A stretch of 22,105 nt of DNA, from the IMG/VR virus record IMGVR_UViG_2671180609_000024; one strand, given 5' to 3'. The stretch is from a virus. Its lineage: Duplodnaviria; Heunggongvirae; Uroviricota; Caudoviricetes. Shown piece by piece: positions 2,728 to 19,573 of this stretch. A program made the translations under genes and the position numbers. Within the stretch, counting starts at the first letter, position 1. Each line of letters starts with the position of its first letter. Below the pieces are notes generated by a model. It was not told the origin of the DNA. It did not search any database and saw nothing but the letters and a program-made list of their open reading frames with translations.

Positions 2728-2908
2728 ATCTGTATGTTTTTTATATAGATTTATTTTTTGCAGGGTTGTGTGGCTTGGGAGGTGATCGAGAGATCAGAAT
2801 TGCGTTGTTTAGTGAGTTGCACCTATTAATTTTAAAATAAATACAATTGGTATCGATGAATTACAGTTGGTGGGCTGTTGGTGAGTAATTTTATTCAGGG
2901 TGATTTAT

Positions 2909-3352
2909 ATGGACGAATATGTTTATAGCGCAAGGCATAATGCTTTTTTCCCTGTGGATATGATTGATAAATATAAATCAGAGGGATGGGATTTATCAGA
3001 CGCTAAGGAAGTAAATCAAAATATTATCAGTGAGTTTATGGCTGAACCGCCACAAGGAAAAATCCGTATTGCCGGAGATGATGGGCTGCCTGCGTGGGCA
3101 GATATTCCTCCACCCACGCATGAAGAGCTTATTGAAATTACTGAATCAGAAAGACAGCTACTAATTAACCAGGCCAACGAATACATGAACAGTAAGCAAT
3201 GGCCCGGTAAAGCGGCTATTGGTCGTCTGAAAGGTGACGAACTGACGCAATATAATTTGTGGCTGGATTATCTGGACGCACTGGAGCTGGTCGATACTTC
3301 CGGTGCGCCAGATATTGAATGGCCTACGCCTCCGGCAGTTCAGGCCAGATGA
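2909..3352 (+). CDS. tfa: Tail fibre assembly protein (Tfa family)
   Basis: C-terminal Tfa signature LELVDTSGAPDIEWPTPP (compare lambda Tfa VDTSTAPDIEWP). Likely start is the ATG at 2909; the listed ORF begins at an upstream GTG at 2900. Confidence 0.8.
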   Translation: MDEYVYSARHNAFFPVDMIDKYKSEGWDLSDAKEVNQNIISEFMAEPPQGKIRIAGDDGLPAWADIPPPTHEELIEITESERQLLINQANEYMNSKQWPGKAAIGRLKGDELTQYNLWLDYLDALELVDTSGAPDIEWPTPPAVQAR

Positions 3353-3917
3353 CATCCGGCGCGGTGCTGGTATCTGTTGCCGTCACCGCGTCAATGTAAT
3401 CCAGCACGGCGTTAAGTCGGGTTGTTTCTGCCTGAGTCAGTTTCCGTCCGGCCTGTAACTTCAGCTGAATCAGACTAATGGAAGCCATTGCTGCATCAAT
3501 CAGTGATTGGCGCTGTGCTTCTGCCGCGTCTACTGCGGCACTGTGTTGTGCCTCAGTGTCTGTCACCCATTTCTCACCATCCCATTTATCGTATGGCGTT
3601 AACGGTGAAATCGTGACATAACCGTCTTTGATGGCACCGATATAATCCACTGTAACAGCTGCGCCATTTTCGATTGAGTAAACAGTCTCATTGCGATGGT
3701 CTTCTTCATGGCTCCATCCCTTACCTGTAAATACTGCCACTCTTCCCGGAATGTTTTCGCCAGGGTCAATACCAGTGGAACAGGCGGGCATACTTACGCC
3801 AGTATTAATATATTCATCAGACCAGCCCGTATACTCAGATGTTTCAGCATCATAATAAAAACAACGCATATCGCCCGGCACTGTAGCCAGCCCATTTTCA
3901 TCAAAAACAGGTTTCAT
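3324..3917 (-). CDS. Tail fibre assembly protein, alternative copy in inverted orientation (Tfa')
   Basis: C-terminus ...DYIDAVTATDTSTAPDVIWPELPEA carries the same Tfa signature; convergent with the plus-strand tfa, as in Mu G / P1 C / e14 P invertible segments. Confidence 0.8.
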   Translation of the reverse strand: MKPVFDENGLATVPGDMRCFYYDAETSEYTGWSDEYINTGVSMPACSTGIDPGENIPGRVAVFTGKGWSHEEDHRNETVYSIENGAAVTVDYIGAIKDGYVTISPLTPYDKWDGEKWVTDTEAQHSAAVDAAEAQRQSLIDAAMASISLIQLKLQAGRKLTQAETTRLNAVLDYIDAVTATDTSTAPDVIWPELPEA

Positions 3918-4414
3918 TATTTAGCCCTCACCAGAAAGTTAAATGCAATATTTCGCGGTCTGACTGCAACAAAATTCACACCATCACCCACAGAGTTACT
4001 GGTGAAATTAAATCGTGAAAATCCTGGCTGATTTCCGGCGATGCCATCATGAAAGTTAATTGCGTGTCCCGCACCTTCGCCTATATTCCCGGCAAACTGA
4101 GAAAAGTTTGTAGCTGCCTGCCAGCTTAATAATTCGCGACCACCGTCTGCACCTCGCCCGTCATCCCAGATACGAATGAAATCACCGCGGGCTTCAGGTA
4201 ATACCAGCGAAGGAAACACTTTCGCCAGCACAGGATAATCAGTGGCAGAGAATTTCGCGCCGTTGAACTTCAAAAACACCATACAGGACCAGCTGTCGAT
4301 TACAGTATTTGGCATTGCAGCGGACGGCCAGAAGAACGGAACGCCAATAGCTGGAGCACCTTCTCTCAAACCAACGTTTATGAAAATGCAGAAATAACGA
4401 GCAAATGGCATCAT
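3917..4414 (-). pseudogene. Tail fibre C-terminal variable-segment fragment (Stf'-like); no constant N-terminal tail-fibre part in the window
   Basis: Gly/Asn/Phe-rich ORF immediately upstream of, and coupled to, tfa' (3917 overlap); its 5' end contains the recombinase crossover-like site. By position it is the alternative variable exon of an invertible tail-fibre gene. Confidence 0.6.
4361..4386. promoter_or_regulatory. Candidate Hin/Gin/Pin-type crossover site (hix/gix/pix-like 26-mer)
   Basis: TTCTCTCAAACCAACGTTTATGAAAA matches hixL (TTCTTGAAAACCAAGGTTTTTGATAA) at about 19 of 26 positions; about 55 bp upstream of the invertase start, where crossover sites lie in known systems. Confidence 0.5.
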
Positions 4415-4440
4415 TCCTGCTTTTGTCAGGGAGATCTACC

Positions 4441-4995
4441 ATGCTTATTGGCTATGTACGTGTGTCAACAAATGACCAGAACACAGATCTACAACGTAAT
4501 GCGCTGAACTGTGCAGGATGCGAGCTGATTTTTGAAGACAAGATAAGCGGTACAAAGTCCGAAAGGCCGGGACTGAAAAAACTGCTCAGGACATTATCGG
4601 CAGGTGACACTCTGGTTGTCTGGAAACTGGATCGGCTGGGGCGCAGTATGCGGCATCTGGTCATTCTGGTTGAGGAGTTGCGCGAACGTGGCGTTAATTT
4701 TCGCAGCCTGACGGATGCTATTGATACCAGTACCCCAATGGGGCGCTTTTTCTTTCATGTGATGGGGGCCCTGGCTGAAATGGAACGAGAACTGATTGTT
4801 GAACGAACAAAAGCTGGACTGGAAGCTGCTCGCGCACAGGGACGAATTGGTGGACGTCGTCCCAAACTTACACCAGAACAATGGGCGCAGGCCGGACGAT
4901 TAATTGCAGCAGGAATTCCTCGCCAGAAGGTAGCGATCATCTATGATGTTGGTGTATCGACACTGTATAAGAAGTTTCCGGCCGGAGATAAATGA
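4441..4995 (+). CDS. pin: Serine-type DNA invertase, Pin/Hin/Gin/Cin family
   Basis: MLIGYVRVSTNDQNTDLQRNAL... resolvase/invertase catalytic domain with the active-site Ser in YVRVST, plus a C-terminal HTH. SD GGGAG 7 nt upstream of the ATG at 4441; the listed ORF begins 12 codons upstream. Confidence 0.9.
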   Translation: MLIGYVRVSTNDQNTDLQRNALNCAGCELIFEDKISGTKSERPGLKKLLRTLSAGDTLVVWKLDRLGRSMRHLVILVEELRERGVNFRSLTDAIDTSTPMGRFFFHVMGALAEMERELIVERTKAGLEAARAQGRIGGRRPKLTPEQWAQAGRLIAAGIPRQKVAIIYDVGVSTLYKKFPAGDK

Positions 4996-5052
4996 AACCG
5001 TAGCACGTCGTATGCAAGATCGTGCTGCGGTTTATGCTTACCACTTGAAGAT

Positions 5053-5922
<870 letters not shown>

Positions 5923-6006
5923 CTAACCCTTTGAATTTACATAGCGCAAAAAGATACCTTTCCTCATAATGTGAGCTAATTTTATGTTTCGTTTGATGAT
6001 CGGGTC

Positions 6007-6067
6007 GGTCTCGAAAACCGGAGTAGGGGCAACTCTACCGGGGGTTCAAATCCCCCTCTCTCCGCCA
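6007..6067 (+). pseudogene. 3' fragment (about 61 nt) of a tRNA-Ser gene (serU-type) - an att-site remnant, not a functional tRNA
   Basis: GGTCTCGAAAACCGGAGTAGGGGCAACTCTACCGGGGGTTCAAATCCCCCTCTCTCCGCCA matches the anticodon-arm-to-3'-end of E. coli tRNA-Ser(CGA) as I recall it; upstream sequence does not form the acceptor or D arm. Confidence 0.8.
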
Positions 6068-6649
6068 CTTTATCAATGACTTATCTCCCGACTTCCCGTC
6101 TTGCTTTTCCTAAACAGAACAATCGTAGAATATTCTTGAAGGGTTAGATCGTCACTGTTTTCTGTTCGATACTGTGACATTCAGCACTTGATTCGCTATG
6201 GATCTGACAGGAAGGTTTTGAGCGAAAATCTGCAGTTATTCAGTCGTTTTCTTATCGGTCACCATTATTCTTTTAGACATTGATCCTACAAAGCTGCCGC
6301 AAAGTTGGTGGTGGGAACTGAAGTTGCGTAGAGAAGGGGTCAATACCCGGAGGCAAACATGGGCTGGCAAAAGTGTAGCGGTATTAGGCGCAGCTATTTA
6401 GCCTAGTTATGTTTTATGAAAACTTGATATCATATAAGTGTCTTACTTATTGGCTGTAAATAAGTTTTTCCTAAGGAATTGTTTCTTGAGTATCATTTGT
6501 AACTGTAACGGAATTTATAATCCTTTGCTTTATTGTTACGGTATTTTTTATCACACCCTATTTTTAGTGGTTTTTTATACTGAAGTTTGGCAAAGTGAAC
6601 TTTATATACATATACTTCATCCTGGTTTCAGTTAAATTGGGGGGATGAT

Positions 6650-7393
6650 ATGGCAACTACATGTTCAGTTATATTGATTTTGGAGTCCTTTGATGTTTAT
6701 TTCGGAAAAGAGAGTGTGTTTCTGGAGAGAGGTTCATCTGTACTTGTCGACTCTAGCTCTAGAGATTTTTTCCTGACATATCCTGAAAGAGTGATAGTGG
6801 CGGATTTTGGCGCTGAGTTTATTAGTCGCTATTTGAAAGCTAATAACTTAAGGGATATTTCTGATTGTAGGGAATATCCATCTTATTTAAAAATAAACTT
6901 TGCTGACTTCAGTTTAATTAAAGGATTAATTAGTTGGGCTAATCACTGTGCTGAATACATAGAAATTTTTGATGAGTCTATTGCTTTTACATGTCTCTCT
7001 GCATTTTCTTCTGAAAAACAATTTGGAGTATTTCTGTTTGGATGTTTGAAAAGCACAGGGGCTAAAGTTAAAACGATTATTCATACGGATTTATCTGCAC
7101 CATGGCGTCTTAAGGATATATCATCAAGATTATATCTCAGCGAAAGTTTACTAAAGAGGAAATTGAAAGAAGAGGGGGTATCATTCAGTAAGATCATACT
7201 TGATGAGAGGATGCAAATGGCTGAATATTTACTCAGCACTCGTTGTTATCCTATTAGTAAAGTAGCTAAGGTCTGTGGTTATGCCAGTGTCTCATACTTT
7301 ACTTATGTATTTAGACGTTATTTTGGTGTTTCTCCAAGTCAATACTCTCAGAGGAGTTCAGAAAGTAAAATTCTTACTCACCAGGGAATCTGA
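6650..7393 (+). CDS. AraC/XylS-family transcriptional regulator (AppY/GadX/Rns-like)
   Basis: C-terminal dual-HTH AraC domain (WRLKDISSRLYLSESLLKRKLKEEGVSFSKIILDERMQMAEYLL ... VCGYASVSYFTYVFRRYFGVSPSQY) aligns by eye to AppY. Very AT-rich gene with a long AT-rich leader; SD GGGGGATGA before the ATG. Confidence 0.85.
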   Translation: MATTCSVILILESFDVYFGKESVFLERGSSVLVDSSSRDFFLTYPERVIVADFGAEFISRYLKANNLRDISDCREYPSYLKINFADFSLIKGLISWANHCAEYIEIFDESIAFTCLSAFSSEKQFGVFLFGCLKSTGAKVKTIIHTDLSAPWRLKDISSRLYLSESLLKRKLKEEGVSFSKIILDERMQMAEYLLSTRCYPISKVAKVCGYASVSYFTYVFRRYFGVSPSQYSQRSSESKILTHQGI

Positions 7394-7395
7394 TC

Positions 7396-7872
7396 ATTGT
7401 TCTTGCCCCCTTATTTCCAGACAGGGGGGGTATCTTAAGTTAACGTTACCCGCTGACGTCGATATTCTCGCGGAGAGCGATAACCCAACGCACTGTGCGG
7501 ATGGTTTTCATTGTAATGTTCGATCGCCACTGCAAGATTATGCAATGCCGTTCTTACATTCGGTTTCGGCATGAACGCGATGTAGTCTTCCTTCATCGTT
7601 TTCACGAACCTTTCTGCAATTCCATTACTCTGAGGACTGCTGATTGCCGTTGTGCAGGGCTCCAGATTCAACTCTCTGGCGAACTGCCGTGTTTCATGCG
7701 CTCTATACGCTGAACCGTTATCTGTCAGCCACTGGATGGACTGTTCCGGTACTTTATCGCCAAAGCGTTTTTCTATCGCTCCTAACATGACATCCTGCAC
7801 TGTCGCTTTATCGTAACCTCCCGTGCTTGCGGCCCAGTCTATGGCTTCACGATCGCAACAGTCCAGGGCGAT
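7396..7872 (-). mobile_element. IS2-like (IS3-family) element remnant: 3' part of the orfB transposase plus a terminal inverted repeat; 5' truncated
   Basis: Translation ...[38 protein letters not shown]...[18 protein letters not shown] matches the IS2 InsD C-terminal region as I recall it. Terminal sequence around 7396-7420 (revcomp CCCCCCCTGTCTGGAAATAAGGGGGCAAG) resembles an IS2 end. In-frame stop at 7873-7875. Confidence 0.8.
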
Positions 7873-8147
7873 TCATCTGGGCCAATCCTTGCTCATAACA
7901 GGCATTCACTTCAGTCATGGCAGAAAGGTATGCATGCTGGAGAAGTCGTGAAAGAAAAGAAGACTGCTGCGCCGTTTGTCGTCACGTTTATCTTCATTGG
8001 CTATGCAAGTCGTAATACAAGGTGGGACAAAACTGAGACACATAAGGCCTCGCAATGGCTTGCAAGGCTTTACATGTTTTGATGTGGTGGGACGTGTGAG
8101 CGCAGTGTTGATGGGGTAATGCTTTGAATTAGAAGCGGATTCTTATA

Positions 8148-8193
8148 ATTCGTAATGCGAAGGTCGTAGGTTCGACTCCTATTATCGGCACCA
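8148..8193 (+). repeat. Direct repeat of the tRNA-Thr 3' end (46 bp, exact): att junction between element 1 and the P4-like element
   Basis: ATTCGTAATGCGAAGGTCGTAGGTTCGACTCCTATTATCGGCACCA is identical to positions 1399-1444 of the full tRNA gene. Confidence 0.9.
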
Positions 8194-8355
8194 TCTCAAC
8201 TTCCTCAAACGTCCGTATTAGTCCATAAAATCTCTGATTTATAACATTTTTTATTCTTTTAAGTCCATAGTAGTCCGTAACCATCCAGTAGAATCCGGTA
8301 CTGAATGTGTATAGGATTGTGTATATGTTCCTGTTCGGTCTGGATTCCTATACAC

Positions 8356-9537
8356 ATGCCTTTAAACGATATGCAGATTCGCCGCGCTAAGCCTGAAGCT
8401 AAAGCCTATACATTTGGAGATGGGCTAGGGTTGTCATTACTTATAGAACCTAATGGAAGCAAGAGTTGGCGGTTCCGCTATCGCTATGCCGGCAAACCCA
8501 AAATGATCTCGCTTGGTGTTTACCCAACGATCACCCTTGCCGATGCTCGTTCCCGTCGTGATGAAGCTCGAAAACTTGTGGCAGAAGGAAAGAACCCTAG
8601 TGAGGTTCGAAAAGAGCAAAAGCTAGCTATGCAAACAGAGTCAGAGAACGCCTTCGAAAAGATAGCCAGAGAGTGGCATCAACTTAAATCTGCTAAATGG
8701 TCGGCGGGATATGCATCAGACATCATGGAAGCGTTTAAGAACGACATTTTTCCTTATGTCGGAACAAGGCCTGTGGGAGAGATTAAACCGCTAGAGCTGC
8801 TGAACGTTCTGCGTAAAATTGAGAAACGTGGTGCGTTGGAGAAAATGCGCAAAGTGCGGCAGCGTTGCTCCGAAGTGTTTCGCTACGCAATTGCAACGGG
8901 TAGGGCGGAGTACAATCCTGCGGCTGATCTCTCCAGCGCTCTCGAAGTACACCAATCCAATCATTTCCCATTCCTAAAAGCTGATGAGATACCTGATTTT
9001 CTACGTGCCTTAGAGGGTTACTCCGGGAGTAAGCTTGTCCAGATAGCCACGAAATTACTGATGATTACGGGTGTGAGAACCATCGAATTACGCGCGGCAT
9101 TATGGCAAGAATTTGATCTGGATAACGCTATTTGGGAAATTCCTGCTGAAAGGATGAAAATGCGTAGGCCACATCTTGTGCCCTTATCATCTCAAGCGGT
9201 AGATTTACTCAATGAACTCAAGATCATGACAGGGAACTATCGTTATGTTTTTCCAGGGCGGAACGATCCGAATAGGCCAATGAGCGAAGCGAGTATAAAT
9301 CAAGCCATTAAGCGTATTGGGTATGGAGGAAAAGTCACTGGACATGGTTTTCGTCATACCCTTTCTACAATCCTGCATGAGCAAGGTTTTGAGAGTGCTT
9401 GGATTGAAATCCAGTTGGCTCATGTAGATAAAAATTCTATTAGGGGGACTTATAACCATGCTCAATATTTTAGTGGAAGGAAGTCTATGATGGACTGGTA
9501 CAGTAATTTGATATTTGAAAGACTAAAAAGGAGTTAA
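8356..9537 (+). CDS. int: P4-type tyrosine integrase (N-terminal arm-binding domain + catalytic domain)
   Basis: N-terminus MPLNDMQIRRAKPEAKAYTFGDGLGLSLLIEPNGSKSWRFRYRY is the classic P4/CP4-type integrase start; C-terminal HGFRHT ... Y catalytic motifs. Immediately follows the tRNA-derived repeat and reads away from it. Confidence 0.92.
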   Translation: MPLNDMQIRRAKPEAKAYTFGDGLGLSLLIEPNGSKSWRFRYRYAGKPKMISLGVYPTITLADARSRRDEARKLVAEGKNPSEVRKEQKLAMQTESENAFEKIAREWHQLKSAKWSAGYASDIMEAFKNDIFPYVGTRPVGEIKPLELLNVLRKIEKRGALEKMRKVRQRCSEVFRYAIATGRAEYNPAADLSSALEVHQSNHFPFLKADEIPDFLRALEGYSGSKLVQIATKLLMITGVRTIELRAALWQEFDLDNAIWEIPAERMKMRRPHLVPLSSQAVDLLNELKIMTGNYRYVFPGRNDPNRPMSEASINQAIKRIGYGGKVTGHGFRHTLSTILHEQGFESAWIEIQLAHVDKNSIRGTYNHAQYFSGRKSMMDWYSNLIFERLKRS

Positions 9538-9540
9538 TTT

Positions 9541-9957
9541 GTGTCTCAACCACTTTCGGAAATATTGACATGGGATGATGAACAATGGGAGGTATTTGTC
9601 CATGATTGGCTTATTGTCTGTAAATCAGATGATTACCCGTGGAGCGAACGTTTGGGAGGAGCTGGAGATAAAGGTAGAGACGTTGTTGGATATAAATCGG
9701 ATCCTAACGTAGAAGGTTATTCTTGGGATAATTATCAATGCAAACTGTACAAAAAAAGTTTAGGGTTCTCTGATGTTGTAGTTGAGTTTGGAAAACTTAT
9801 CTATTTTACTCTGAATGGTGATTATCCCATCCCTCAGAAGTACTTTTTTGTGGCACCCTATGATTTATCTACTACATTTTCTAATTTATTGAAAAATAAA
9901 AACGAGCTTAAAAAAGCAGTCCTTGATTCATGGGATTCAGCAATTTCAAAAAAATAA
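9541..9957 (+). CDS. Cargo gene 1: small protein with a PD-(D/E)xK (Mrr-like) nuclease motif; possibly the N-terminal part of a longer protein (see findings)
   Basis: GTG start 7 nt after SD AAGGAG and 3 nt after the int stop. Motifs GGAGDKGRDVVGY and, about 20 aa later, YQCKLYKK (D ... QxK) look like a restriction-endonuclease-like core. Very AT-rich. Confidence 0.6.
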   Translation: MSQPLSEILTWDDEQWEVFVHDWLIVCKSDDYPWSERLGGAGDKGRDVVGYKSDPNVEGYSWDNYQCKLYKKSLGFSDVVVEFGKLIYFTLNGDYPIPQKYFFVAPYDLSTTFSNLLKNKNELKKAVLDSWDSAISKK

Positions 9958-10547
9958 CTAAAAAGATTGATATTCCATTAGATGATGAAATAAAAAAATA
10001 TATTGAGGATTTTGATTTTAGTATTTTTTACTCTCTACCCTTATCATTGATTTTAAATGATATTGCAAATACACACCTTTATTTTAAGTACTTTAACGAG
10101 CTGTATGTCGTGAGAATCCCTCCAAATGAAATTCCAACATACAATTCAAAAAAAGAGTCTGTATATGTTAATGCACTGCTTCAAGCCTATTCAGAGCATG
10201 GAAATAAAACTTATAGTTCTTTCTTAGAGCTTGATGATCCATACAGACGACACTTTAATAATAGTAGAAATGATTTTTATTTTGCATCTTCGCTTGAGGT
10301 TTTTGTCCGCGAAGTATTTAAAGATGATGTATTCAAAGCATTGAAATGTTACATTTCATCTTCAATTGAACCCGTCTTTTATGAAGACCATAATTATGCA
10401 TTTATTAGGTGTAATGCAGTCTTGAAGCAGGCTGTTCTGACACCAATTGCACATTCAGTACTATCAAAAATATGTGAAGCAAATGATAAAAAAGGAATAT
10501 GCCATCATTTGGTTAATGATGGTGAAGTAATTTGGACGGTGAGATAA
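9930..10547 (+). CDS. Cargo gene 2: hypothetical protein (205 aa as listed); may be the C-terminal part of gene 1 joined by a shift in an A7 run
   Basis: ORF overlaps gene 1 by 28 nt in another frame; both frames pass through the A7 homopolymer at 9948-9954. No domain recognised by eye. Confidence 0.5.
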   Translation: MGFSNFKKITKKIDIPLDDEIKKYIEDFDFSIFYSLPLSLILNDIANTHLYFKYFNELYVVRIPPNEIPTYNSKKESVYVNALLQAYSEHGNKTYSSFLELDDPYRRHFNNSRNDFYFASSLEVFVREVFKDDVFKALKCYISSSIEPVFYEDHNYAFIRCNAVLKQAVLTPIAHSVLSKICEANDKKGICHHLVNDGEVIWTVR

Positions 10548-11005
10548 TGGTTAGAATTTATAATTCAAGTTTAGAAGTGGCATGTCGAATGGCGAAAGTG
10601 CTCGTCGCTATTTATCCTTCTTCATTAAGCCTTGAACGGCTTATTTGTTTTGATTTTATTTTAGTAAATCTTAAGGATTTTTTACCTGAAGAGATTAGTC
10701 TTCATCCTCCAATACCCCGTAGAGATGCTCAGTTAGCCCTAAAACGAGAGATTGTTTTAGAATCATTGGCTTTGTTGCAAGGCTATGAACTAGCCTCAAA
10801 AATTTATACACATCGTGGTTTTGTATATAAAGCTTCTGAAAAAACATATGCATTTACAAATTCTCTACATAATGAATATGTTGCGCAGATGGAGCATAAT
10901 ATAAATTTGGTGGTTAAGTTATATAGTGATATTCCTGATGAGCAGTTGCAATCAATTATAAAAAATAAAATTGGCAAATATGATATGGAATTTAATTATG
11001 AATGA
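10547..11005 (+). CDS. Cargo gene 3: hypothetical protein (about 152 aa)
   Basis: ATG overlaps the gene-2 stop (TAATG at 10545-10549); its stop overlaps the next gene's start. Same AT-rich composition. Confidence 0.55.
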   Translation: MVRIYNSSLEVACRMAKVLVAIYPSSLSLERLICFDFILVNLKDFLPEEISLHPPIPRRDAQLALKREIVLESLALLQGYELASKIYTHRGFVYKASEKTYAFTNSLHNEYVAQMEHNINLVVKLYSDIPDEQLQSIIKNKIGKYDMEFNYE

Positions 11006-11630
11006 CAATTTTTTTACGTTCAGAAAAATAAAGGTAACCGGATTCAATAAATTAGATGCTATAATTGAATTTGGTTCTAAATTGACTATTTTATATGGTG
11101 GTTCTGACTCTGGAAAAACATACATATATTATTTGATTCGATATTTATTAGGGAGTGAAAAACTAAAAAATAAAGATATCGATCATGCTCAAGGTTATGA
11201 TTTAGCCTATCTGGAATTTAATTTTCAAGGTAGGGTAATGACAATTGAGAGGTCTCTTCAGGATAGCGCCCATTACAGATTATATGATTCGAGCATTGAA
11301 AATGTTAGTGAAGCTAATCTGTTGATGGTTTTTTCCAAAAGTGCTTCGTCTAAAAAGAGTTTTTCATCATACTTTTATGGTAGGTTGAATTTCAAAGAGG
11401 CTAAAGTAAGAACAAACTTAAGTAATACTCTTCATAAATTTAATCTTAATAATGTTTTTGAATTTTTTTGTATTGATGAATTAAGAGTGTTAACTGAGAA
11501 GTCGTTAATTCTTTCTGATATTCCTAGCGAGGAGACAAAAAGAAAGTCTGAATTTAAATTCCTTTTAACTCAGAGAGATGATACTAACTCCTTAGCAGAA
11601 AAACCAAATAAAAAAGCAAGATATTTTTAA
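10998..11630 (+). CDS. Cargo gene 4: N-terminal head of an SMC/Rad50/RecN-like ABC ATPase (Walker A)
   Basis: FRKIKVTGFNKLDAIIEFGSKLTILYGGSDSGKTYIYYLIRYLLG is the canonical SMC-like N-terminal strand-loop-Walker A arrangement (GxxxxGKT). The ORF ends at a TAA inside a T5/A7 tract and the next ORF continues in the same frame. Confidence 0.65.
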   Translation: MNDNFFTFRKIKVTGFNKLDAIIEFGSKLTILYGGSDSGKTYIYYLIRYLLGSEKLKNKDIDHAQGYDLAYLEFNFQGRVMTIERSLQDSAHYRLYDSSIENVSEANLLMVFSKSASSKKSFSSYFYGRLNFKEAKVRTNLSNTLHKFNLNNVFEFFCIDELRVLTEKSLILSDIPSEETKRKSEFKFLLTQRDDTNSLAEKPNKKARYF

Positions 11631-11660
11631 AAAAATCAAATTGCAAATATTTATGAGGAA

Positions 11661-12251
11661 TTGAAAGCGCAATTAATTTATCCTGAATATGATCAAGTCA
11701 TTGTTTCAAGAGAACTTGAGAAAGTAGAGCAAGATATTGAATCATCGAAAGATATATTGAAAGGTATTGTTGATGCACTTGATGATAAGAAGCAATTATT
11801 AAAAGAGTTAAGTGATGAATTATATTCAATCAGTGACAGGGAAAAATACTTATCATTACTCATTGAAAGATTTAGTCTTCTTAAAGACCAATACTTTATA
11901 GATCTACAAAGAATAGATGTTGTATCACAGGCGAATTTCTATTTAAATAATTTTGCAGATATTTATTGTGAGTTCTGTAATACACCGCAAAAAAAAGAAA
12001 ATGAAATATCATATGATGATTGTTTTTTGTCGTGTAATGCAGAAAAATTGAAAATCAAAAGCCAGCTGAAAGGATTAATTGAATCAATCGGATCTAATGT
12101 TCGCGAACATGAATTAATTATGTTAAGAAAAAATGATGTTAATGAAATTTATCAATCAGAAAAAAGTGATTTTAAGACGTTAGAAGATAAAAATATAAAA
12201 CAATACATTCATCTCTTGAATCACTTTATGAATATAAAGACAATCTTTTAA
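11661..12251 (+). CDS. Cargo gene 5: coiled-coil segment of the SMC/Rad50-like ATPase with a Cys4 cluster (CxxC-x14-CxxxC); probably not independently translated
   Basis: Heptad-rich sequence (EKVEQDIESSKDILKGIVDALDDKKQLLKELSDELYSI...), cysteines in YCEFCNTPQ...DDCFLSCN. Same frame as gene 4, separated by a single TAA; the listed start is a TTG with no convincing SD. Confidence 0.5.
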   Translation: MKAQLIYPEYDQVIVSRELEKVEQDIESSKDILKGIVDALDDKKQLLKELSDELYSISDREKYLSLLIERFSLLKDQYFIDLQRIDVVSQANFYLNNFADIYCEFCNTPQKKENEISYDDCFLSCNAEKLKIKSQLKGLIESIGSNVREHELIMLRKNDVNEIYQSEKSDFKTLEDKNIKQYIHLLNHFMNIKTIF

Positions 12252-12817
12252 TGGATCACACAAAACATAGCATTCTATCTTCATTACAAGATAAAGAAGA
12301 TGATGTTGACGAACTTAAATACTCCGCCGAGGACTTTGACTCCTTAACAGTAGCTGATTTGTATGATATAGAAATAGCGATGCAAGACTTTTTGAATGAT
12401 ATAAATTTTGAAAATTCTAAAGATAACAAAGTGCGATTTGACGAAGATACATATGACTTTAATATCAATGGGAAACGCCGAGGAATGTTTGGTAAAGGTA
12501 CCCGTGCAGTAATGCATGCTATATTTACCATTTGCTTTGCGGAATTTTTATCAAGAAAAGGGAATCCATTCATTGGATTTGTTGTGCTTGATAGTCCATT
12601 AGTGACGCACTTTGATAAAGATAGAGGGGGTTCTCTATCGGATGTTAATAGCGTCAGTCTCAGTGATTCATTTTATCACGCATTAATCAAAAGGGACTAT
12701 AATTTCCAGATTGTAATTCTTGAGAATAAAGGTCCGACGTTCCAAATAAAAATTAATGATGCAAATAAAATCCATAACTTAAATAAGAATGGAAGCTCTG
12801 GTTTTTATCCTGTTTAA
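12251..12817 (+). CDS. Cargo gene 6: C-terminal head of the SMC/Rad50-like ABC ATPase (signature-like region, Walker B/D-loop, H-loop)
   Basis: FGKGTRAVMHAIFTICFAEFL followed by PFIGFVVLDSPLVTHFD (hydrophobic strand + D, Walker B-like) and a downstream His (FYHAL). ATG overlaps the gene-5 stop (TAATG). Confidence 0.6.
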   Translation: MDHTKHSILSSLQDKEDDVDELKYSAEDFDSLTVADLYDIEIAMQDFLNDINFENSKDNKVRFDEDTYDFNINGKRRGMFGKGTRAVMHAIFTICFAEFLSRKGNPFIGFVVLDSPLVTHFDKDRGGSLSDVNSVSLSDSFYHALIKRDYNFQIVILENKGPTFQIKINDANKIHNLNKNGSSGFYPV

Positions 12818-13175
12818 TACATTAAAAATATAACTGCTAATTGGGGTGCTCGAAATTATATTTCGTTTCGAGCGCTCAGTTCATTTCTAAATAATTTGCA
12901 AAATTATTTTGGGTACTTTCGCCTCTACACTTCCTTCGGGTGGTTCCACAATAATGGATCTCACCGGCGTTTGATATTTTATAATCTAACCCCTTAGCGC
13001 GCGCAGCCCCCCACGCCTGCTCGCTTCGCTTAACAGACTGGTTTTCATGCATTCCGCAAATCGTCTCAGAAGCCACCACACAAGGGCTTTCGCGTCAAAA
13101 ATGGTGCATGAGAATCATGCGTTTTCATGCGCTATAGACATGCACTCATGCGCTCTCAGGCCAGCCAGGGAAAAG

Positions 13176-13215
13176 GCGTAAAAAATCCCAGTACTGGACC
13201 GGGATTACGTGGGCT
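13176..13215 (-). terminator. Rho-independent terminator for the minus-strand sid-psu-delta operon (possibly bidirectional)
   Basis: Stem AATCCC (13184-13189) / GGGATT (13201-13206), flanked by an A-run on one side and a T-run on the other; on the minus strand the hairpin is followed directly by TTTTTT. Lies just 3' of the Ogr/Delta-like gene. Confidence 0.6.
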
Positions 13216-13226
13216 TTTTTTGCTAA

Positions 13227-13499
13227 TCAGACAGGAATTTGCTGACGGCTTGACAGCTTTGACGCGGAGCCATAGCGATTGAGAGTTTGCTGTTGTTTTT
13301 CCGGCATTTGTGCTTTCTCTGATTCCTGTTCATTGCGCCGGGGCTTCATGATTATCGTATCCACACTTTCCAGTGCGGTAAATGTGTAGGAACATTCAAG
13401 ATTCTGGCACTGATACCATGAGCGTTTAACCGATGGTGCTTCATAGGCGGAGGTTCTGGCGTGTGCCGTCGTACCGCATTCGGGACATTTAAGTGCCAT
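13227..13499 (-). CDS. Ogr/Delta-family zinc-finger late-gene activator (single-domain, 90 aa)
   Basis: MALKCPECGTTAHARTSAYEAPSVKRSWYQCQNLECSYTFTALESVDTIIMKP aligns by eye with P2 Ogr (CPxC..AHARTS ... QCQN.xCS.TF..ESV). Confidence 0.85.
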   Translation of the reverse strand: MALKCPECGTTAHARTSAYEAPSVKRSWYQCQNLECSYTFTALESVDTIIMKPRRNEQESEKAQMPEKQQQTLNRYGSASKLSSRQQIPV

Positions 13500-13504
13500 T
13501 AATA

Positions 13505-14056
13505 TTACTCCTGCATGCCGTTAATGTAATCCAGACGTTGCTGAAAGCGCAGTTGTTGTGCAGGGGTGTAAGAGCTCTGGCAATCACGAACCATCATGGG
13601 GTCAGGCATCACACCGGATTCATCCAGAATCATACGATAATCCCCGGCAATTTCAGGCGGTGTTATTGCCAGCTGGCGAACCAGAGCATTGCGTAATATA
13701 CGGGACGCAACGTCAACCCCTCCGCGCCCCTTCAGGAACGGAGCCAGTGCAGATGTCAGGGCTGCTCCATTCGCCTGCATAAAATTGCTGAGAGCGTCTT
13801 CTGTGCAGGCCTCCATCAGTTGATGCTGCGAGTAAATGCATTCGCGCGCAGCACAGTTAATTTGCCATTTCAGCACATCCAGATGTTCCCGCTGTAATTC
13901 GAGCTGTCGAGCATAATCTGCTGGTTTTTCCATGGCAGTGAGGAGTGATTCTATCTGTTGTTCAACGGCTTTTCGGCTCTCACTATGTCCAGCCCACAGA
14001 ATACGGGCATTTCTAAAACTGATAAGCGCTTGGTCTGGAGTGACTCGGGCCATCAT
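13505..14056 (-). CDS. psu: Psu-like polarity suppression / capsid decoration protein
   Basis: Segment LDVLKWQINCAARECIYSQHQ ... LSNFMQANGAALTSALAPFLKG ... TPAQQ resembles P4 Psu as I recall it (KWQ.N.AA ... FMQ.HG.AL..ALAP.L.G ... TPAQ). Size 183 aa against 190 aa. Confidence 0.7.
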   Translation of the reverse strand: MMARVTPDQALISFRNARILWAGHSESRKAVEQQIESLLTAMEKPADYARQLELQREHLDVLKWQINCAARECIYSQHQLMEACTEDALSNFMQANGAALTSALAPFLKGRGGVDVASRILRNALVRQLAITPPEIAGDYRMILDESGVMPDPMMVRDCQSSYTPAQQLRFQQRLDYINGMQE

Positions 14057-14805
14057 ACTGCTTTCTCCTTCTCAGCACGTTCCTGACGAACCTTCATTTT
14101 ATGCATAGCTGCTGGAGAGAGTTTATTACTGAAATCCAGACGGGCCGCATAATCCGGGGCAACTCCCGCCAGTTTAAACACGGGGTCCTGTTCGGGCATC
14201 GCATCGTTAGTCAGAGCCGGTCTGGTGATATGTTTATGAATAAAATCTTTCAGCAGTGTGTCCGGGTCATTAACTGAATGCACCACACCGACAACTGCGC
14301 TGGCTTCCCTGCCCATTGTTGATTTGAGCAGGCTTAGTGTCTGGATTAGTGCTTTTCCATGCGACTGCATAAAATCTTCCCAGATTTGTTTTGCGCGAAT
14401 ACCCACAAGGGTGTCGTGCGCGTGGATATACTTTCCGGCTAATTCCGCAGCCTCCTGCGGCAAAAGTGCATTTTCGCTTTCCTGAGCCGCCAGCAGCTCA
14501 TCAAAATCCTCAAGCGTTTCTCGTCCCAGCGCAATTTCCGTGCGCAGTTTTTTCATTTCCTTTGAGACTACGCCCTGACTTTCACGAAATAGCGTGCGCC
14601 ACTCCTCATTCAGGGCGTTCGTCGTGGCTTCCATTTCAGCGCGGCGCTGGCGGATTGTCGCAATATTATCCGCTGCCGCTTTTTGCTGACGACGTGCTTC
14701 AAGCCATGCAGATTTGGTGGCATTCACTTTCTCAAGCGCCTGTTGCGTCGAAACAGGGATAGAAATTTCAACGATCGGGTTATTGTTCTGTTCTGGGATT
14801 GTCAT
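14053..14805 (-). CDS. sid: Probable Sid-like external scaffold (capsid size determination) protein
   Basis: 250-aa alpha-helical, Ala/Glu/Gln-rich protein, first gene of the minus-strand operon and overlapping psu by 4 nt; size and position match P4 Sid (244 aa). Called by context, not by a recognised motif. Confidence 0.5.
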   Translation of the reverse strand: MTIPEQNNNPIVEISIPVSTQQALEKVNATKSAWLEARRQQKAAADNIATIRQRRAEMEATTNALNEEWRTLFRESQGVVSKEMKKLRTEIALGRETLEDFDELLAAQESENALLPQEAAELAGKYIHAHDTLVGIRAKQIWEDFMQSHGKALIQTLSLLKSTMGREASAVVGVVHSVNDPDTLLKDFIHKHITRPALTNDAMPEQDPVFKLAGVAPDYAARLDFSNKLSPAAMHKMKVRQERAEKEKAV

Positions 14806-14971
14806 GTCAGCACCTAGTGGTTTGTCGTGGTGTCAATTGTGCTGTGATGCATACAAAGCTGCCATTGAACGCCATTGTGCGAGCGACAAGACAAAGACTG
14901 AACCGCCCCGGACCTCTTTTGGCTAGCCAGAAAAGGCCTCGTTTAACTAAGGCTGTTTCAGACTTACCTTA

Positions 14972-15187
14972 ACTATTCACTACTATTCACTTAGGTAAAA
15001 AAAATAGGTAATACAGAAGGTTATAAGGTGAAGGGTTGGCATGGCAGTATTCATCGACTGTTCATAACTGTTCACATGGGAATAAAATTATTTATGGTAT
15101 TTTTTCATAATGGGTGGTTTTTTTATTCCTCGTAGCTATTTGTTTTTTGCTCCTCACCACTATTCACCCTTATTCAGGAGTATTCAA
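14972..15187. repeat. Cluster of about 8 direct iteron-like repeats, T(A/G)TTCA(C/T) (P4 type-I-iteron-like TGTTCACC variants), in the divergent intergenic region
   Basis: ACTATTCACT ACTATTCACT (tandem, 14972-14991), AGTATTCAT (15047), TGTTCAT (15059), TGTTCAC (15069), TATTCACC (15161), TATTCAG (15171), TATTCAA (15181), all in the same orientation. Confidence 0.6.
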
Positions 15188-15738
15188 CAGGCACATAAAT
15201 AGACTGCATGTTTTTGCCGGGGAATAACATTTTCGCCTCTGGCCATGGTGTTGCATTTCATACTGATTTTTATAAAACTAGATCTGTCCGGTTCTTTATG
15301 GATTCATTCGGATATATTTTACGATTTAAGGTGATGTTATTTAATATCAAGGTTTTTATGCAGGCCCAATGTTTATAAGTTGGATGCGATTCAAAAATAT
15401 GCCCGGAAATTGGGGCCTGCAATGCAAGGCCTCGTGTAGAAGTTGTACTGCCTTGCTGTATTGGCGGTGGGGTTAGCACTATCAGGTGCAATGACCCATA
15501 GGATAGTAAACCCTGGGTGAATGGTAGTTCCTATTAATGCTCCTGTATTTATAGTCCGCAGGCATGGTATTTATTATGTCATTTTATATGGTTTAATCGG
15601 GCTTTAAATTCCATAAAATCAATATGTGACGCTAAATAAAAAATGCGTGCGCAGGTGGTTTATATACACATAATAAGGAACTACCTGAACCCGGATAAAT
15701 TCATCCGGACTGTTGTGGAAATTAAAGAGGGTAGATAA

Positions 15739-15999
15739 ATGCGTAATATTTCTGTGTCTGCGCCAGCTCCTGCTGCGCCATTATTTCCTGTATCGAACCA
15801 TCATGAGCGATTTTTACGCCTGCCTGAGGTGATGCACTTATGCGGGTTGTCCCGTTCGACCGTTTACGACCTGATCAGCCGCGATGCGTTTCCGAAGCAG
15901 ATCCCGCTTGGCGGTAAAAATGTCGCCTGGGCACAGTCTGAGGTCAGCGCATGGATGGCGGACCGCATCAGCGCCCGTGGGCGGGGATGTGATGCATGA
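15739..15999 (+). CDS. AlpA/Vis-family small DNA-binding regulator (excisionase-like HTH)
   Basis: [48 protein letters not shown] matches the AlpA/Vis HTH pattern. SD AGAGGG 7 nt before the ATG. Confidence 0.8.
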
Positions 16000-16549
16000 T
16001 GATACCTGCATACATTAAATACCTTTATTCTGGCTTGCTTACTGTCGTCATTTCCAGGTATAGTTTTTCCGCTGTCGCAAAATCGGCAGCCGGAATTGGC
16101 GTTCCGTATAACTTATTGGCGACAATTGACGCCCCTTGCGTCTTTTTTTACGTCGTAGCTCAGGCACAACCATTTTCAGGGCTGTGGTGTTTATGCTTAC
16201 ACCATGGTTCTATCGAGATAATGGTAGTCCGGGCGGGGCAGCCTTCGGGCTGGCCGGTTTCCAATAAGGCCGGTTACGCCAACCCCGTTCGGGCTGCCAC
16301 CAGTGAAATTGGCGTTTCCGGTGGTAGCAATAACCGCTACTTATTGGAGGCTGCCATCATGGCTACAATCCTCACCCCGTCACACCCGCAATATGTCTTT
16401 GTGTTTGCCGCAATCCGCCGTGCTGACACTCACCCCCGCATCTGTATGCTTCGCACTGTCTCCTGCGATGAGCGTTCCGCGCGCCGTTTGCTAGTCCGAG
16501 ATTATGTACTCTCCCTTTCTGCACGGCTGCCTGCCGGGGAGGTGACGCT

Positions 16550-16771
16550 ATGAACCAGTTTGAGATTTCCTACGACGATGTTGTAAGGCTGAAACATTTA
16601 CGCAATGTGGGTGAGTATGTAACTGGCATGGCAGCCCTGCAGGACTGTTATGAAAAGCCAGCAGGTGCCCAATGCGAACAACTGGTTTCCCTCATTTATC
16701 TGATGACAGAGCAACTGGATGGAGTGGTGCAACGCTGCCATGACGACCTGATGAATGCGGAGGTGGCCTGA
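16550..16771 (+). CDS. Hypothetical small protein of the P4-like early operon (73 aa)
   Basis: SD GGGAGGTGA 4 nt before the ATG; ATGA-type overlap with the next ORF; same operon as alpha. Function unknown (positional analogue of P4 epsilon/orf151). Confidence 0.55.
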
Positions 16772-17094
16772 TGATATGCTGTGAATCTCTTCTGGCACTT
16801 CGTGCCGCTCTGTATCGCCGTGCCGTTGCCTGTGCCTGGCTGGCTCTAAGCAATCATCAGGAACGTTATTCCGGCCTGACGCTCGCTGAACTTGAAGATG
16901 CCATAGCCCGCGAGCTGGAAGGGTTCTATCTGCGCCAGCATGGGCAGCAAAGAGGGCTGGAAATTGCCTGCGCGTTGCTTTCGGATCTGATGGAGTCGGG
17001 GCCGCTTAAAGCCTGTCCGGTTCTCTCACTGCTCGGAATGACGGTCATGGATGAACTTTGTTCCCGTCACCTCAACAAACCAGCGCTGCACTAA
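16771..17094 (+). CDS. Hypothetical protein of the P4-like early operon (107 aa)
   Basis: SD GGAGGTGG upstream; start overlaps the previous stop; ends 13 nt before the alpha start. Confidence 0.55.
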
Positions 17095-17107
17095 GGAGGG
17101 CCGCACA

Positions 17108-19441
17108 ATGTCAGGAATGAAAGTTAGCCAGGCTGAGAAAGCAGCTCGGGGTCACTGGTCAAGAATTTTACCTGCGCTGGGCGTAAATGTACTGAAAAAT
17201 CGGCACCAGCCCTGCCCGGTCTGTGCCGGGAAAGACCGCTTTCGATTTGATGACCAGGAAGGGCGGGGAACGTGGTTCTGTAACCAGTGCGGGGCAGGTG
17301 ATGGCCTGGCGCTTGTAAGTAAAGTACTGGATGTAGGCATTAGTGAAGCGGCAGACAGAATAAACGGCATTATCGGAAACCTGCTGCCAGTATCTCAGGG
17401 AATGCTTGAATCTGGTTCTCCTGAAAAAGAGGACGGGAGAAAAGCTGCAGCAGTGCTGGCTGCCCGTTTGTTTGATAAGTCCCGCCAGACCACTGGCAAT
17501 GCCTATCTGACGAGTAAAGGGTTTCCTGCACTGCCTTGCCGGGAATTAACCGCTATGCATAAAGTCGGTGGTGTGGCATTTCGCGCGGGAGATCTTGTCG
17601 TTCCATTGTATGCAGATGGAGAGCTGGTAAATCTGCAGTTAATCAACGCTAATGGGGGCAAATGCTTCCTTAAAGGCGGTCAGGTTAAGAATGCCTTTTA
17701 CCTGGTTGAAGGTACTGCCAAAGCAGCCAAACGGCTCTGGATAGCGGAAGGATATGCCACCGCACTTACTATCAACTATCTGACTGGCGATGCTGTCATG
17801 GTGGCCTTTTCGTCCGTCAATTTCCTTTCCCTGGCGAGCATTGCCTGCAGTGAGTACCCAACGCACCAGATAATTATTGCTGCTGACCGCGATCTCAACG
17901 GTGCGGGGCAAACAAGGGGCGCAGCTGTTACCGGGGCCTGCAATTGCACAATGGCGCTCCCGCCTGTGTTTGGTGACTGGAACGATGCATTCACGCAAAA
18001 CGGCGAAGAAGCCACCCGGCATGCAATTCATGAAGTAATAAAACCAGCTGTTGCCAGCCCCTTCGACACAATGAGCGAAGCTGAATTTACCGCGCTGAGC
18101 GTCAGCGAAAAAGCGCAGAGGGTAGTGGATCACTATAAAAATTCACTGGCAGTAGACCCGAACGGGCAGCTCCTTTCACGCTATGAGGCGGGGGCCTGGA
18201 AAGTTATCTATTACGCCGATTTTGCCCGTGATGTCGCTGCGCTGTTTCAGCGCCTCGACGCACCTTTTTCATCCGCGAAAATTGCGTCTCTCGTGGAAAC
18301 CCTCAAACTGATCGTTCCGCAACAGCAGAATCCGGCGCGGCAACTTATCGGATTTCGCAACGGTGTGCTCGATACCCGGACAGGATTGTTCAGCCCGCAC
18401 GATAAGAAGCACTGGTTACGTACGCTGTGCGAGGTGGATTACACGCAGCCCGTTGACGGTGAGTCACTGGAAACCCATGCCCCGGCATTCTGGCGCTGGC
18501 TGGATCGTGCCGCAGGTTTTAATCCTGAAAAACGGGACATTATTCTGGCTGCATTGTTTATGGTGCTGGCTAACCGTTATGACTGGCAGCTGTTTCTGGA
18601 GGTCACTGGCCCTGGCGGAAGTGGAAAGAGTATTCTTGCTGAAATAGCAACCATGCTGGCGGGTGAAGATAACGCGACCTCGGCAACCATTGAAATGCTT
18701 GAGTCGCCAAGAGAACGAGCTGCGTTAATAGGTTTTTCACTGATTCGACTTCCCGACCAGGAAAAGTGGAGCGGTGACGGGGCCGGACTAAAAGCCATCA
18801 CTGGCGGCGATGCGGTATCCGTTGATCCCAAATATCAGAACGCCTATTCAACCCACATCCCGGCGGTCATCCTGGCTGTGAACAATAATCCGATGCGCTT
18901 CACTGATCGTAGTGGTGGAGTTTCACGCCGAAGGGTGATCCTGCATTTCCCCGACCAGATAGCCCCGGAGGAACGCGATACCCAGCTCAAAGAGAAAATT
19001 GCCAGTGAGCTAGCGGTGATTGTTCGCCAGCTTATGCAGCGTTTCAGCGACCCAATGAGTGCCAGGACATTGCTTCAGTCACAGCAGAACTCCGATGAAG
19101 CGCTCACCATCAAACGTGATGCTGATTCAGCTTTTGATTTTTGCGGCTACCTTGAGGTCCTACCTGACACCACGGGCATGTTTATGGGGAACGCTAATAT
19201 TGTTCCACGTCAGCCTCGAACTTACCTCTACCATGCCTATCTGGTCTACATGGAGGCTAACGGCTATAAAAATACGCTCAGTCTGACCATGTTTGGCAAG
19301 GGGCTACCGTTAATGCTCAAGGAATATGGGCTGCAGTATGAGAAACGACGGACCAATCAAGGAATGCAGACTAATCTGGCCCTAAGAGAGGAAAGCAATG
19401 CTGACTGGTTGCCAAAATGCGATGAGTTTGCAGCGAAATAA
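17108..19441 (+). CDS. P4 alpha-like bifunctional primase-helicase (777 aa)
   Basis: SD AAGGAGGG before the ATG at 17108. N-terminal zinc-binding primase motif CPVCAGKDRFRFDD...GTWFCNQCGAGDG; central P-loop EVTGPGGSGKSIL (D5-type helicase Walker A). Length equals that of P4 alpha (777 aa). The listed ORF starts 19 codons upstream. Confidence 0.9.
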   Translation: MSGMKVSQAEKAARGHWSRILPALGVNVLKNRHQPCPVCAGKDRFRFDDQEGRGTWFCNQCGAGDGLALVSKVLDVGISEAADRINGIIGNLLPVSQGMLESGSPEKEDGRKAAAVLAARLFDKSRQTTGNAYLTSKGFPALPCRELTAMHKVGGVAFRAGDLVVPLYADGELVNLQLINANGGKCFLKGGQVKNAFYLVEGTAKAAKRLWIAEGYATALTINYLTGDAVMVAFSSVNFLSLASIACSEYPTHQIIIAADRDLNGAGQTRGAAVTGACNCTMALPPVFGDWNDAFTQNGEEATRHAIHEVIKPAVASPFDTMSEAEFTALSVSEKAQRVVDHYKNSLAVDPNGQLLSRYEAGAWKVIYYADFARDVAALFQRLDAPFSSAKIASLVETLKLIVPQQQNPARQLIGFRNGVLDTRTGLFSPHDKKHWLRTLCEVDYTQPVDGESLETHAPAFWRWLDRAAGFNPEKRDIILAALFMVLANRYDWQLFLEVTGPGGSGKSILAEIATMLAGEDNATSATIEMLESPRERAALIGFSLIRLPDQEKWSGDGAGLKAITGGDAVSVDPKYQNAYSTHIPAVILAVNNNPMRFTDRSGGVSRRRVILHFPDQIAPEERDTQLKEKIASELAVIVRQLMQRFSDPMSARTLLQSQQNSDEALTIKRDADSAFDFCGYLEVLPDTTGMFMGNANIVPRQPRTYLYHAYLVYMEANGYKNTLSLTMFGKGLPLMLKEYGLQYEKRRTNQGMQTNLALREESNADWLPKCDEFAAK

Positions 19442-19448
19442 CTGACCT

Positions 19449-19469
19449 AAGACCGGCTGTGCCGGTCTT
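19449..19469. terminator. Perfect palindrome / hairpin (AAGACCGG ... CCGGTCTT) between the convergent alpha and cargo genes; no U-tract
   Basis: AAGACCGGCTGTGCCGGTCTT forms an 8-9 bp stem, 8 nt after the alpha stop. No flanking T-run on either strand, so terminator function is uncertain; it could be a protein-binding palindrome. Confidence 0.35.
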
Positions 19470-19573
19470 AAATCCGCTACAGGAAATTATCTCAAAATAT
19501 ATATCGATAAAATTTAAAAGTTATATGCTAAGGCGTCAGCGGAAAATGCATCTAATTCATTGTTAGATGATGT

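Follow-up and report, generated by a model that had tools for sequence, protein, structure and literature searches.

A homopolymer frameshift splits lmuA in a probably decaying Lamassu cassette of the P4-like prophage Sp2 of Escherichia coli O157:H7

Two open reading frames (ORFs) overlap by 28 nt at a run of seven adenines in the 22,105-nt stretch of Escherichia coli O157:H7 DNA analyzed here (the window). Are these two genes, one gene that can be switched or recoded, or the remains of a gene that has been lost? Gene 1 starts at a GTG and encodes 138 amino acids (aa); gene 2 starts at an ATG, encodes 205 aa and lies in the -1 frame with respect to gene 1. The sequence from 9946 to 9957 reads TCA AAA AAA TAA, with the stop codon of gene 1 (9955-9957) directly after the A7 run, and insertion of a single A into that run yields a 335-aa ORF that reads ...SAISKKITKKIDIP... 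across the junction (its sequence is also given as ...DSWDSAISKKITKKIDIPLDD...). The tract with the stop codon behind it has the form of an A_AAA_AAA -1 slippery heptamer in the frame of gene 1. The initial annotation had described this overlap and a fusion of about 335 aa as the product of one extra A, and its coordinates and arithmetic are all correct on re-reading the sequence. It offered three explanations: a true frameshift in an inactivated system, slipped-strand phase variation and a homopolymer sequencing error. The evidence collected here favors the first, with a probability of about 0.93, in the form of a model whereby genes 1 and 2 are the halves of an ancestral lmuA and the whole system is a decaying pseudogene cassette that is neither switchable nor recoded.

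By itself the A7 run is not unusual. The cassette that contains it (9541-12817) has a G+C content of 31% and holds six runs of at least seven A, where about 1.5 are expected from base composition. What goes beyond chance is that the two ORFs, once joined at the run, match one protein family from end to end and without a gap. The fused 335-aa protein matches the PADLOC model for the Lamassu effector LmuA (PDLC03852; E 8e-89) with its residues 3-333 on model positions 10-333 of 336, and a Pfam ABC-3C CTD6 domain covers residues 206-332 (E 2e-29). The N-terminal part carries the nuclease core motif G40-x-G42-D43-K-G45-R-D47 ... Q66-C67-K68, in which D43, D47, Q66 and K68 are invariant in an alignment of 118 sequences; this residue numbering and the CTD6 limits refer to the repaired 335-aa sequence. 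The fused protein is best read as an LmuA with a PD-(D/E)xK-type N-terminal domain followed by ABC-3C CTD6, and the suggestion in the initial annotation that a nuclease-like motif would head an effector of about 335 aa agrees with the PADLOC, CTD6 and fold matches. Only after repair to A8 does the sequence fit the LmuA model over its whole length. As encoded, the match is split after codon 138, and the locus does not give the single polypeptide, N-terminal effector plus ABC-3C C-terminal domain, that makes up an LmuA; to judge from these matches, it is a pseudogene of an LmuA family member. None of the five products matches an NCBIfam model.

The genes downstream place lmuA in a larger unit. 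lmuC appears intact and matches Pfam MC2 (E 5e-30, profile positions 2-142 of 145) and PADLOC LmuC (E 3e-36); its ATG overlaps the lmuA stop codon (TAATG), and it shares 8 nt with lmuB. LmuB proteins are SMC/Rad50-like ABC ATPases of about 600 aa, defined by a Walker A motif, a coiled coil that may or may not bear a CxxC hook, and a Walker B motif of the form hhhhD[Q/S/T/E] (PMC12663957). Here, ORFs at 10998-11630, 11661-12251 and 12251-12817 tile the PADLOC LmuB model PDLC03863 (610 positions) at positions 3-199, 231-412 and 428-608. Aligned to the 604-aa LmuB of Xenorhabdus bovienii, the fragments are 53-57% identical, and GGSDSGKT, CEFC and FVVLDSP are all seen in the alignment; as in other short Lamassu systems, Walker A (GGSDSGKT), CxxC hook and Walker B (hhhhD[S]) are present, and HMMs for LmuA, LmuC and LmuB all match. 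One tblastn segment (11025-12245) passes straight through an in-frame TAA at 11628-11630, which was probed with a surrounding 201-mer and where the aligned residue of X. bovienii is Leu209. LmuB is recognized by the homology of a disrupted gene, not by an intact ORF, and with this reading both LmuB and LmuC have the features of a short (type II) Lamassu. Because PADLOC and Pfam assign LmuA, LmuC and three pieces that tile one LmuB model, the locus can be identified at the sequence level as an lmuA-lmuC-lmuB operon of the short (type II) Lamassu or ABC-3C type (Table 1).

Table 1. Positions of the Lamassu cassette, its lesions and the flanking genes of prophage Sp2 in the window
Feature	Position	Strand	Basis
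P4-type tyrosine integrase, left border of the hotspot	8305..9537	+	Arm-DNA-bind_3, Phage_int_M, Phage_integrase; intS of prophage Sp2
lmuA 5' fragment (gene 1, ECs_0290, 138 aa)	9541..9957	+	PD-(D/E)xK-type core; premature TAA from frameshift
A7 homopolymer, where an ancestral in-frame A8 (TCA AAA AAA ATA = S-K-K-I) probably lost 1 nt	9948..9954	+	sequence; Aeromonas dhakensis A8; 309 E. coli records
lmuA 3' fragment (homologous part of gene 2, ECs_0291, ORF 9930-10547)	9954..10547	+	ancestral residues 139-335; CTD6 206-332
lmuC (ABC-3C middle component 2, 152 aa), appears intact	10547..11005	+	Pfam MC2, PADLOC LmuC
lmuB fragment 1 (Walker A, GGSDSGKT), ends at nonsense TAA	10998..11630	+	PDLC03863 positions 3-199/610
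lmuB fragment 2 (coiled coil, CxxC motif CEFC), same frame as fragment 1	11631..12202	+	LmuB positions 231-412
lmuB 1-nt deletion, approximate site, frame 0 to 2	12195..12205	+	common to O157:H7 and O55:H7
lmuB fragment 3 (C-terminal ATPase half, Walker B FVVLDSP), other frame	12203..12817	+	LmuB positions 428-608/610
delta-psu-sid helper-subversion operon of P4-like satellite, right border of the hotspot	13227..14805	-	record annotations

Is the effector a single protein elsewhere? A search of a collection of 5.8 billion proteins with the fused protein as query gave 157 relatives, of which the best 120 were analyzed. Apart from two truncated entries, each of these is a single protein of 298-381 aa, and more than 115 homologues, of 324-381 aa, span 97-100% of the fusion. 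The closest is a 335-aa protein of X. bovienii, 67% identical with zero gaps, and no full-length relative above 67% identity is found in that collection. The 118-sequence alignment has no gap where the two ORFs meet. W131 is invariant in it, and at least 90% of the sequences keep I139, which is the first codon past the tract and can be read only in the fused frame. The same holds at the level of genomes, where all 80 loci, from many phyla, match without an internal stop; in most of them an lmuC-sized ORF comes next and then an lmuB-sized ORF of 600-650 aa. The continuous ORF that the initial annotation proposed to look for in homologues is present in every one of these genome loci and in more than 115 single proteins.

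Intact cassettes also show what the tract may have looked like before the break. Those of X. bovienii and Aeromonas dhakensis have the same gene order and sizes (335-337, 151-152 and 604-608 aa), and their LmuA proteins, encoded by uninterrupted ORFs, are 57-67% identical to the fusion. In X. bovienii all three genes are intact (lmuA, 335 aa; lmuC, 152 aa; lmuB, 604 aa) and meet at the same junctions, a 1-nt stop/start overlap followed by one of 8 nt; unlike the cassette studied here, this copy adjoins phage terminase and portal genes and does not lie in a P4-like satellite. At the aligned codons, the intact A. dhakensis lmuA reads TCA AAA AAA ATT (S-K-K-I), an in-frame A8; the neighboring lmuC (151 aa) and lmuB (608 aa) are intact too. 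This supplies the A7 versus A8 comparison between orthologous cassettes that had been proposed as a check. The closest relatives have no heptamer (AGT AAA ATA in Xenorhabdus, CGT AAA ATC in Serratia), and other relatives read AGT AAA AAA ATA, AGC AAA AAG ATA or AGT AAA ATA; a Chryseobacterium relative has an in-frame A9, and the A-run is four or shorter in most. It is the peptide K-I-T/S that is kept among relatives, not the nucleotide tract.

Could gene 2 nevertheless be a gene in its own right, after a genuine fission that made the nuclease domain and the C-terminal module separate working subunits? Lamassu architectures do vary, with one short-Lamassu clade lacking an LmuA effector domain (PMC12663957), and RefSeq annotates two separate coding sequences (CDSs). 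However, no homologue is split at this junction, lmuB is broken, and gene 2 lacks the marks of a start site. Its ATG at 9930 is formed out of frame by the invariant Trp131 codon (tcA TGg), its first eight codons (9930-9953) are lmuA sequence read in the wrong frame, and no Shine-Dalgarno motif is present in the 20 nt upstream. The genuine operon junctions look different, with AGGAG 8 nt upstream of the lmuA GTG start and GGTGAG before the TAATG of the lmuA/lmuC junction. Two separate overlapping genes with the same A7 tract in other genomes, along with ribosome-binding evidence for gene 2, were what the initial annotation named as evidence against a fusion; instead the overlapping pair is confined to a single clonal lineage, and a ribosome-binding site for gene 2 is lacking. 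Gene 2 is no independent gene.

The predicted structure of the effector points the same way. As a proxy, the gap-free, 67% identical Xenorhabdus LmuA was modeled with AF2 on a 117-sequence alignment, which gave a two-domain protein (pLDDT 95, pTM 0.80). An N-terminal alpha/beta core with strands at 34-37, 48-51, 62-67 and 100-105 carries the G-x-G-D-K-G-R-D ... Q-C-K motif; a helix at 120-138 stops exactly at the frameshift break, residues 139-185 prolong the fold, and an extended stretch at about 186-202 leads to a helical C-terminal domain. The break falls at a helix end within a continuous modeled fold and not in the predicted inter-domain linker (about 186-202), which argues further against fission, a reading whose probability is next to nil. 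The top Foldseek matches are the solved LmuA chains 9nxx, 9ny1, 9hqx and 9uxl from Vibrio cholerae and Salmonella, at a probability of about 1.0, followed by the nucleases Cap4, MspJI and FokI. The modeled resemblance to solved LmuA comes with low TM-scores (0.25-0.30), which may be attributed to a differing relative orientation of the two domains, and with identities of 7-12% in structural alignments, undetectable by profile search. The link to the solved structures comes from this fold comparison because a PDB profile search with the LmuA alignment gave no match at E <= 0.01.

Known relatives with a solved or described organization include the DdmABC system of V. cholerae (Lamassu Vc-Cap4) and LmuACB of Salmonella enterica, which likewise combine an effector LmuA with a small LmuC and with an SMC/Rad50-like LmuB that is about 600 aa long. 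The cassette described here differs from the solved systems in the type of its C-terminal domain (CTD6) and of its LmuC (MC2), and in that this copy, with its lesions, is predicted to be non-functional. In the solved complexes, the C-terminal domain docks LmuA onto LmuB and LmuC and mediates the tetramerization that forms the active nuclease site (PMC12663957). The 138-aa fragment lacks this domain, so it should be neither regulated nor activatable. By analogy, the ancestral system would have functioned as do other short Lamassu systems whose effector is of the PD-(D/E)xK type.

Runs such as A7 or A8 are classic error sites on some sequencing platforms, and the fused ORF fits the family perfectly, so that the true genome might have A8 and an intact lmuA. 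The spread of the allele leaves virtually no probability to such a sequencing or assembly error. The island is carried by 308 of 5,426 complete E. coli genomes (309 records), a set that takes in O55:H7 strains as well as the reference genomes of Sakai and EDL933. A native 87-mer with A7 is identical in 309 of 309 records, from 308 independently sequenced genomes. The A8-repaired 88-mer is found at 100% in none of them (each record listed matches at 98.9%), and no intact A8 allele exists among the 5,426 complete genomes. The T to A change at 11629 in lmuB is moreover a base substitution and not an indel-type error.

The same census bears on phase variation, in which slipped-strand changes would toggle the defense between A7 (off) and A8 (on). 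In its favor, the lesion alters one unit of a mononucleotide run at a site where A8 is in frame. Both tract lengths would then be expected among isolates with the rest of the locus intact, yet the ON allele occurs in none of the 308 genomes, which span O55:H7 and O157:H7. Nor is tract length kept in relatives, which mostly have runs of four or fewer. In every genome analyzed closely, lmuB has two breaks of its own, and because it carries these two independent lesions, a restored A8 would not restore the system. A switch is highly improbable on these grounds. With both the switch and the sequencing error set aside, the true frameshift is the only one of the three explanations in the initial annotation to survive: A7 is fixed, and lmuB is broken as well.

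Could the tract instead be a recoding site, at which -1 ribosomal frameshifting or transcriptional slippage gives rise to full-length LmuA alongside a 138-aa product that has the nuclease only? The A7 run is a canonical X_XXY_YYZ heptamer in the frame of gene 1 with a stop immediately after it, and a -1 shift gives exactly the family consensus S-K-K-I-T. The slippery heptamer is, however, the only hallmark of programmed frameshifting that is present. No stimulatory RNA structure is predicted in the 80 nt downstream (9955-10034), where the minimum free energy of -5.9 kcal/mol is worse than that of shuffled sequences (z-score +1.0), and the site is not conserved: the heptamer is absent from the closest and from most relatives, all of which have one ORF. 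With the LmuB sensor/ATPase dead, a full-length effector would also be left without its partner. Recoding is very unlikely as an explanation of the locus, and any frameshifting is probably an unselected low-level leak. In a weaker variant, a little full-length LmuA may still be made by -1 slips at A_AAA_AAA-TAA.

The reading that is left is that of a decaying pseudogene cassette. lmuA is the effector gene of a short (type II) Lamassu, and prophage Sp2 carries this system as cargo in its defense hotspot. Its in-frame A8 (TCA AAA AAA ATA, Ser-Lys-Lys-Ile) would have been shortened by one A, with replication slippage as the most likely cause. The loss would put a TAA directly after Lys138 and sever the PD-(D/E)xK nuclease domain from the remainder of the protein, CTD6 included. 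The A8 ancestral state is taken from relatives, the nearest full-length one being 67% identical. At least three lesions lie in the window, the lmuA frameshift, the lmuB nonsense codon and the lmuB 1-nt deletion, and the system is therefore best viewed as a decaying pseudogene cassette. With three disruptive lesions, any protection against phages or plasmids by the native locus is predicted to be lost.

Comparison with O55:H7 suggests an order for these events. Strain CB9615 (O55:H7) and O157:H7 both carry the lmuA A7 and the lmuB frameshift at 12.2 kb. The codon at 11628-30 is TTA (Leu) in CB9615 and TAA in O157:H7, and CB9615 has two private indels, a T added to the T7 run at 11463-69 and an A missing from the A6 run at 12160-65. 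The lmuA mutation is fixed in the O55:H7/O157:H7 lineage and is old, because it is common to O55:H7; the shared lmuA and lmuB frameshifts probably predate the split of the compared strains, with the nonsense codon arising on the O157:H7 side and the two homopolymer indels on the O55:H7 side. Lesions acquired independently in each lineage, mostly in homopolymers, are the signature of stepwise neutral decay after inactivation.

Was the loss selected rather than neutral? Phage replication is sensed and plasmids are removed by Lamassu systems, whose effectors become toxic on over-expression. A knockout of lmuA in the O55:H7 ancestor could then have relieved autoimmunity, or could have eased the later accumulation of pO157 and lambdoid prophages that defines O157:H7. 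Selected loss is unlikely. Several observations sit less easily with a pseudogene cassette as a whole. lmuC is intact and gene 1 keeps a good Shine-Dalgarno motif and start codon, so that fragments may still be expressed; the A_AAA_AAA heptamer followed by a stop could let a little full-length LmuA be made; no intact version of the allele with A8 is found; and defense pseudogenes are reported to be rare in P4 hotspots (PMC13586616).

That last point concerns the genomic setting. Positions 4360-22000 of the window are 99.994% identical to strain Sakai, where the region is annotated as "prophage Sp2, P4-like phage". Record annotations give the P4 core genes int, delta, psu, sid and primase, and Rfam adds C4 antisense RNA and isrK in the immunity region. 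The G+C content of the Lamassu cassette (31%) stands against 50% in the P4 core. The main defense hotspot of P4-like satellites is the interval from the integrase to psu-delta-sid (PMC13586616), and the cassette lies exactly between a P4-type integrase and delta-psu-sid. In a recent P4 survey, defense pseudogenes made up less than 1% of P4 pseudogenes, and defense systems in these hotspots were argued to be swapped before they decay (PMC13586616). The dead Lamassu cassette, retained in an important lineage of pathogens, is a clear exception to this reported turnover and atypical for its location. A full-text literature search on Lamassu, P4-like satellites and hotspots returned no description of this pseudogene, and the P4 survey does not mention O157 (PMC13586616).

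Database annotation currently keeps the pieces apart. Across about 30 O157:H7 genomes and O55:H7 CB9615, RefSeq lists the two halves of lmuA as "hypothetical protein" and "ABC-three component system protein"; in the same records the pieces of lmuB are separate CDSs, an ATPase and hypothetical proteins, and in the Sakai record only the ATPase is marked as a pseudogene. Each fragment should carry a pseudogene label and be assigned to a single Lamassu operon, so that censuses of defense systems neither count the locus as functional nor overlook it as a relic. As a degenerate member of a well-described family, it leaves the understanding of the Lamassu mechanism unchanged. For the turnover of defense systems it offers a datable counter-example, a dead system carried through the O55:H7 to O157:H7 transition while gaining lineage-specific, mostly homopolymer lesions. 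Some of these differences could serve as typing markers, namely TAA/TTA at 11629, T7/T8 at 11463-69 and A6/A5 at 12160-65.

Three sites in lmuB carry disruptive, lineage-specific changes when the O157:H7 window is set against the corresponding locus of O55:H7 CB9615, one of them the nonsense codon (see table). The two sequences show 10 differences over approximately 1.8 kb of lmuB and 3 over the 1.2-kb integrase gene, counts that are consistent with relaxed constraint on lmuB. The three sites could also find use as lineage markers. The P4 satellite backbone looks better preserved than this defence cargo, since int, delta, psu, sid and primase, which belong to the P4 core, are all annotated as ordinary CDSs. 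In the immunity region of the satellite, Rfam models identify isrK with a score of 72 bits and the C4 antisense RNA with 84 bits.

Features of the window, with the states of the lmuB sites in the two lineages
Feature	Window position	Strand	Description
417-aa ORF	1-1254
tRNA-Thr(CGT)	1369-1444
324-aa ORF	1459-2433	minus
lmuB site	11463-11469		T8 in O55:H7 CB9615, T7 in O157:H7 window
lmuB site	11628-11630		TTA in O55:H7 CB9615, TAA in O157:H7 window
lmuB site	12160-12165		A5 in O55:H7 CB9615, A6 in O157:H7 window
isrK / C4 antisense RNA	16071-16148 and 16217-16304		P4 immunity region (Rfam)

The A7 tract in lmuA occupies what may be a site of recurrent mutational weakness in the family: the position aligned to window 9946-9957 is repeatedly a long homopolymer. 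The intact lmuA homologue of Chryseobacterium hispalense carries an in-frame A9 (GAA AAA AAA ATT) whose codons align with this same stretch.

Observations from relatives also concern lmuB. In a second strain of Xenorhabdus bovienii (L004 7459-8103), lmuB departs from the intact X. bovienii copy directly past ...KVARSFL, at the same codon as the E. coli O157 nonsense mutation, and the contig ends 12 nt further on; the break probably marks the edge of an insertion or a repeat. Serratia fonticola GTA-SR07 (L005 approximately 5400-9002), the nearest relative within the species-representative genome collection, has intact lmuA and lmuC, and no lmuB-sized ORF is present downstream of them, where G+C content is visibly raised. 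Replacement or interruption may have affected lmuB in this genome as well.

Within E. coli, the cassette occurs twice in a single genome, with one copy lying in a record labelled plasmid. In three O157:H7 genomes (M1300706002, 6535NalR and 6535WT) the 3.6-kb region is further interrupted by IS1203, an IS3-family element.

The left part of the window touches on prophage Sp1. Positions 1-2848 are not collinear with the compared stretch of the Sakai reference genome, and the Sp1 region of this strain may therefore differ from that of Sakai. The adjacent segment, 2849-4384, lies beside the pinE DNA-invertase gene of Sp1 and matches Sakai at 99.8% in inverted orientation; this is apparently the invertible tail-fibre segment, captured the other way round.
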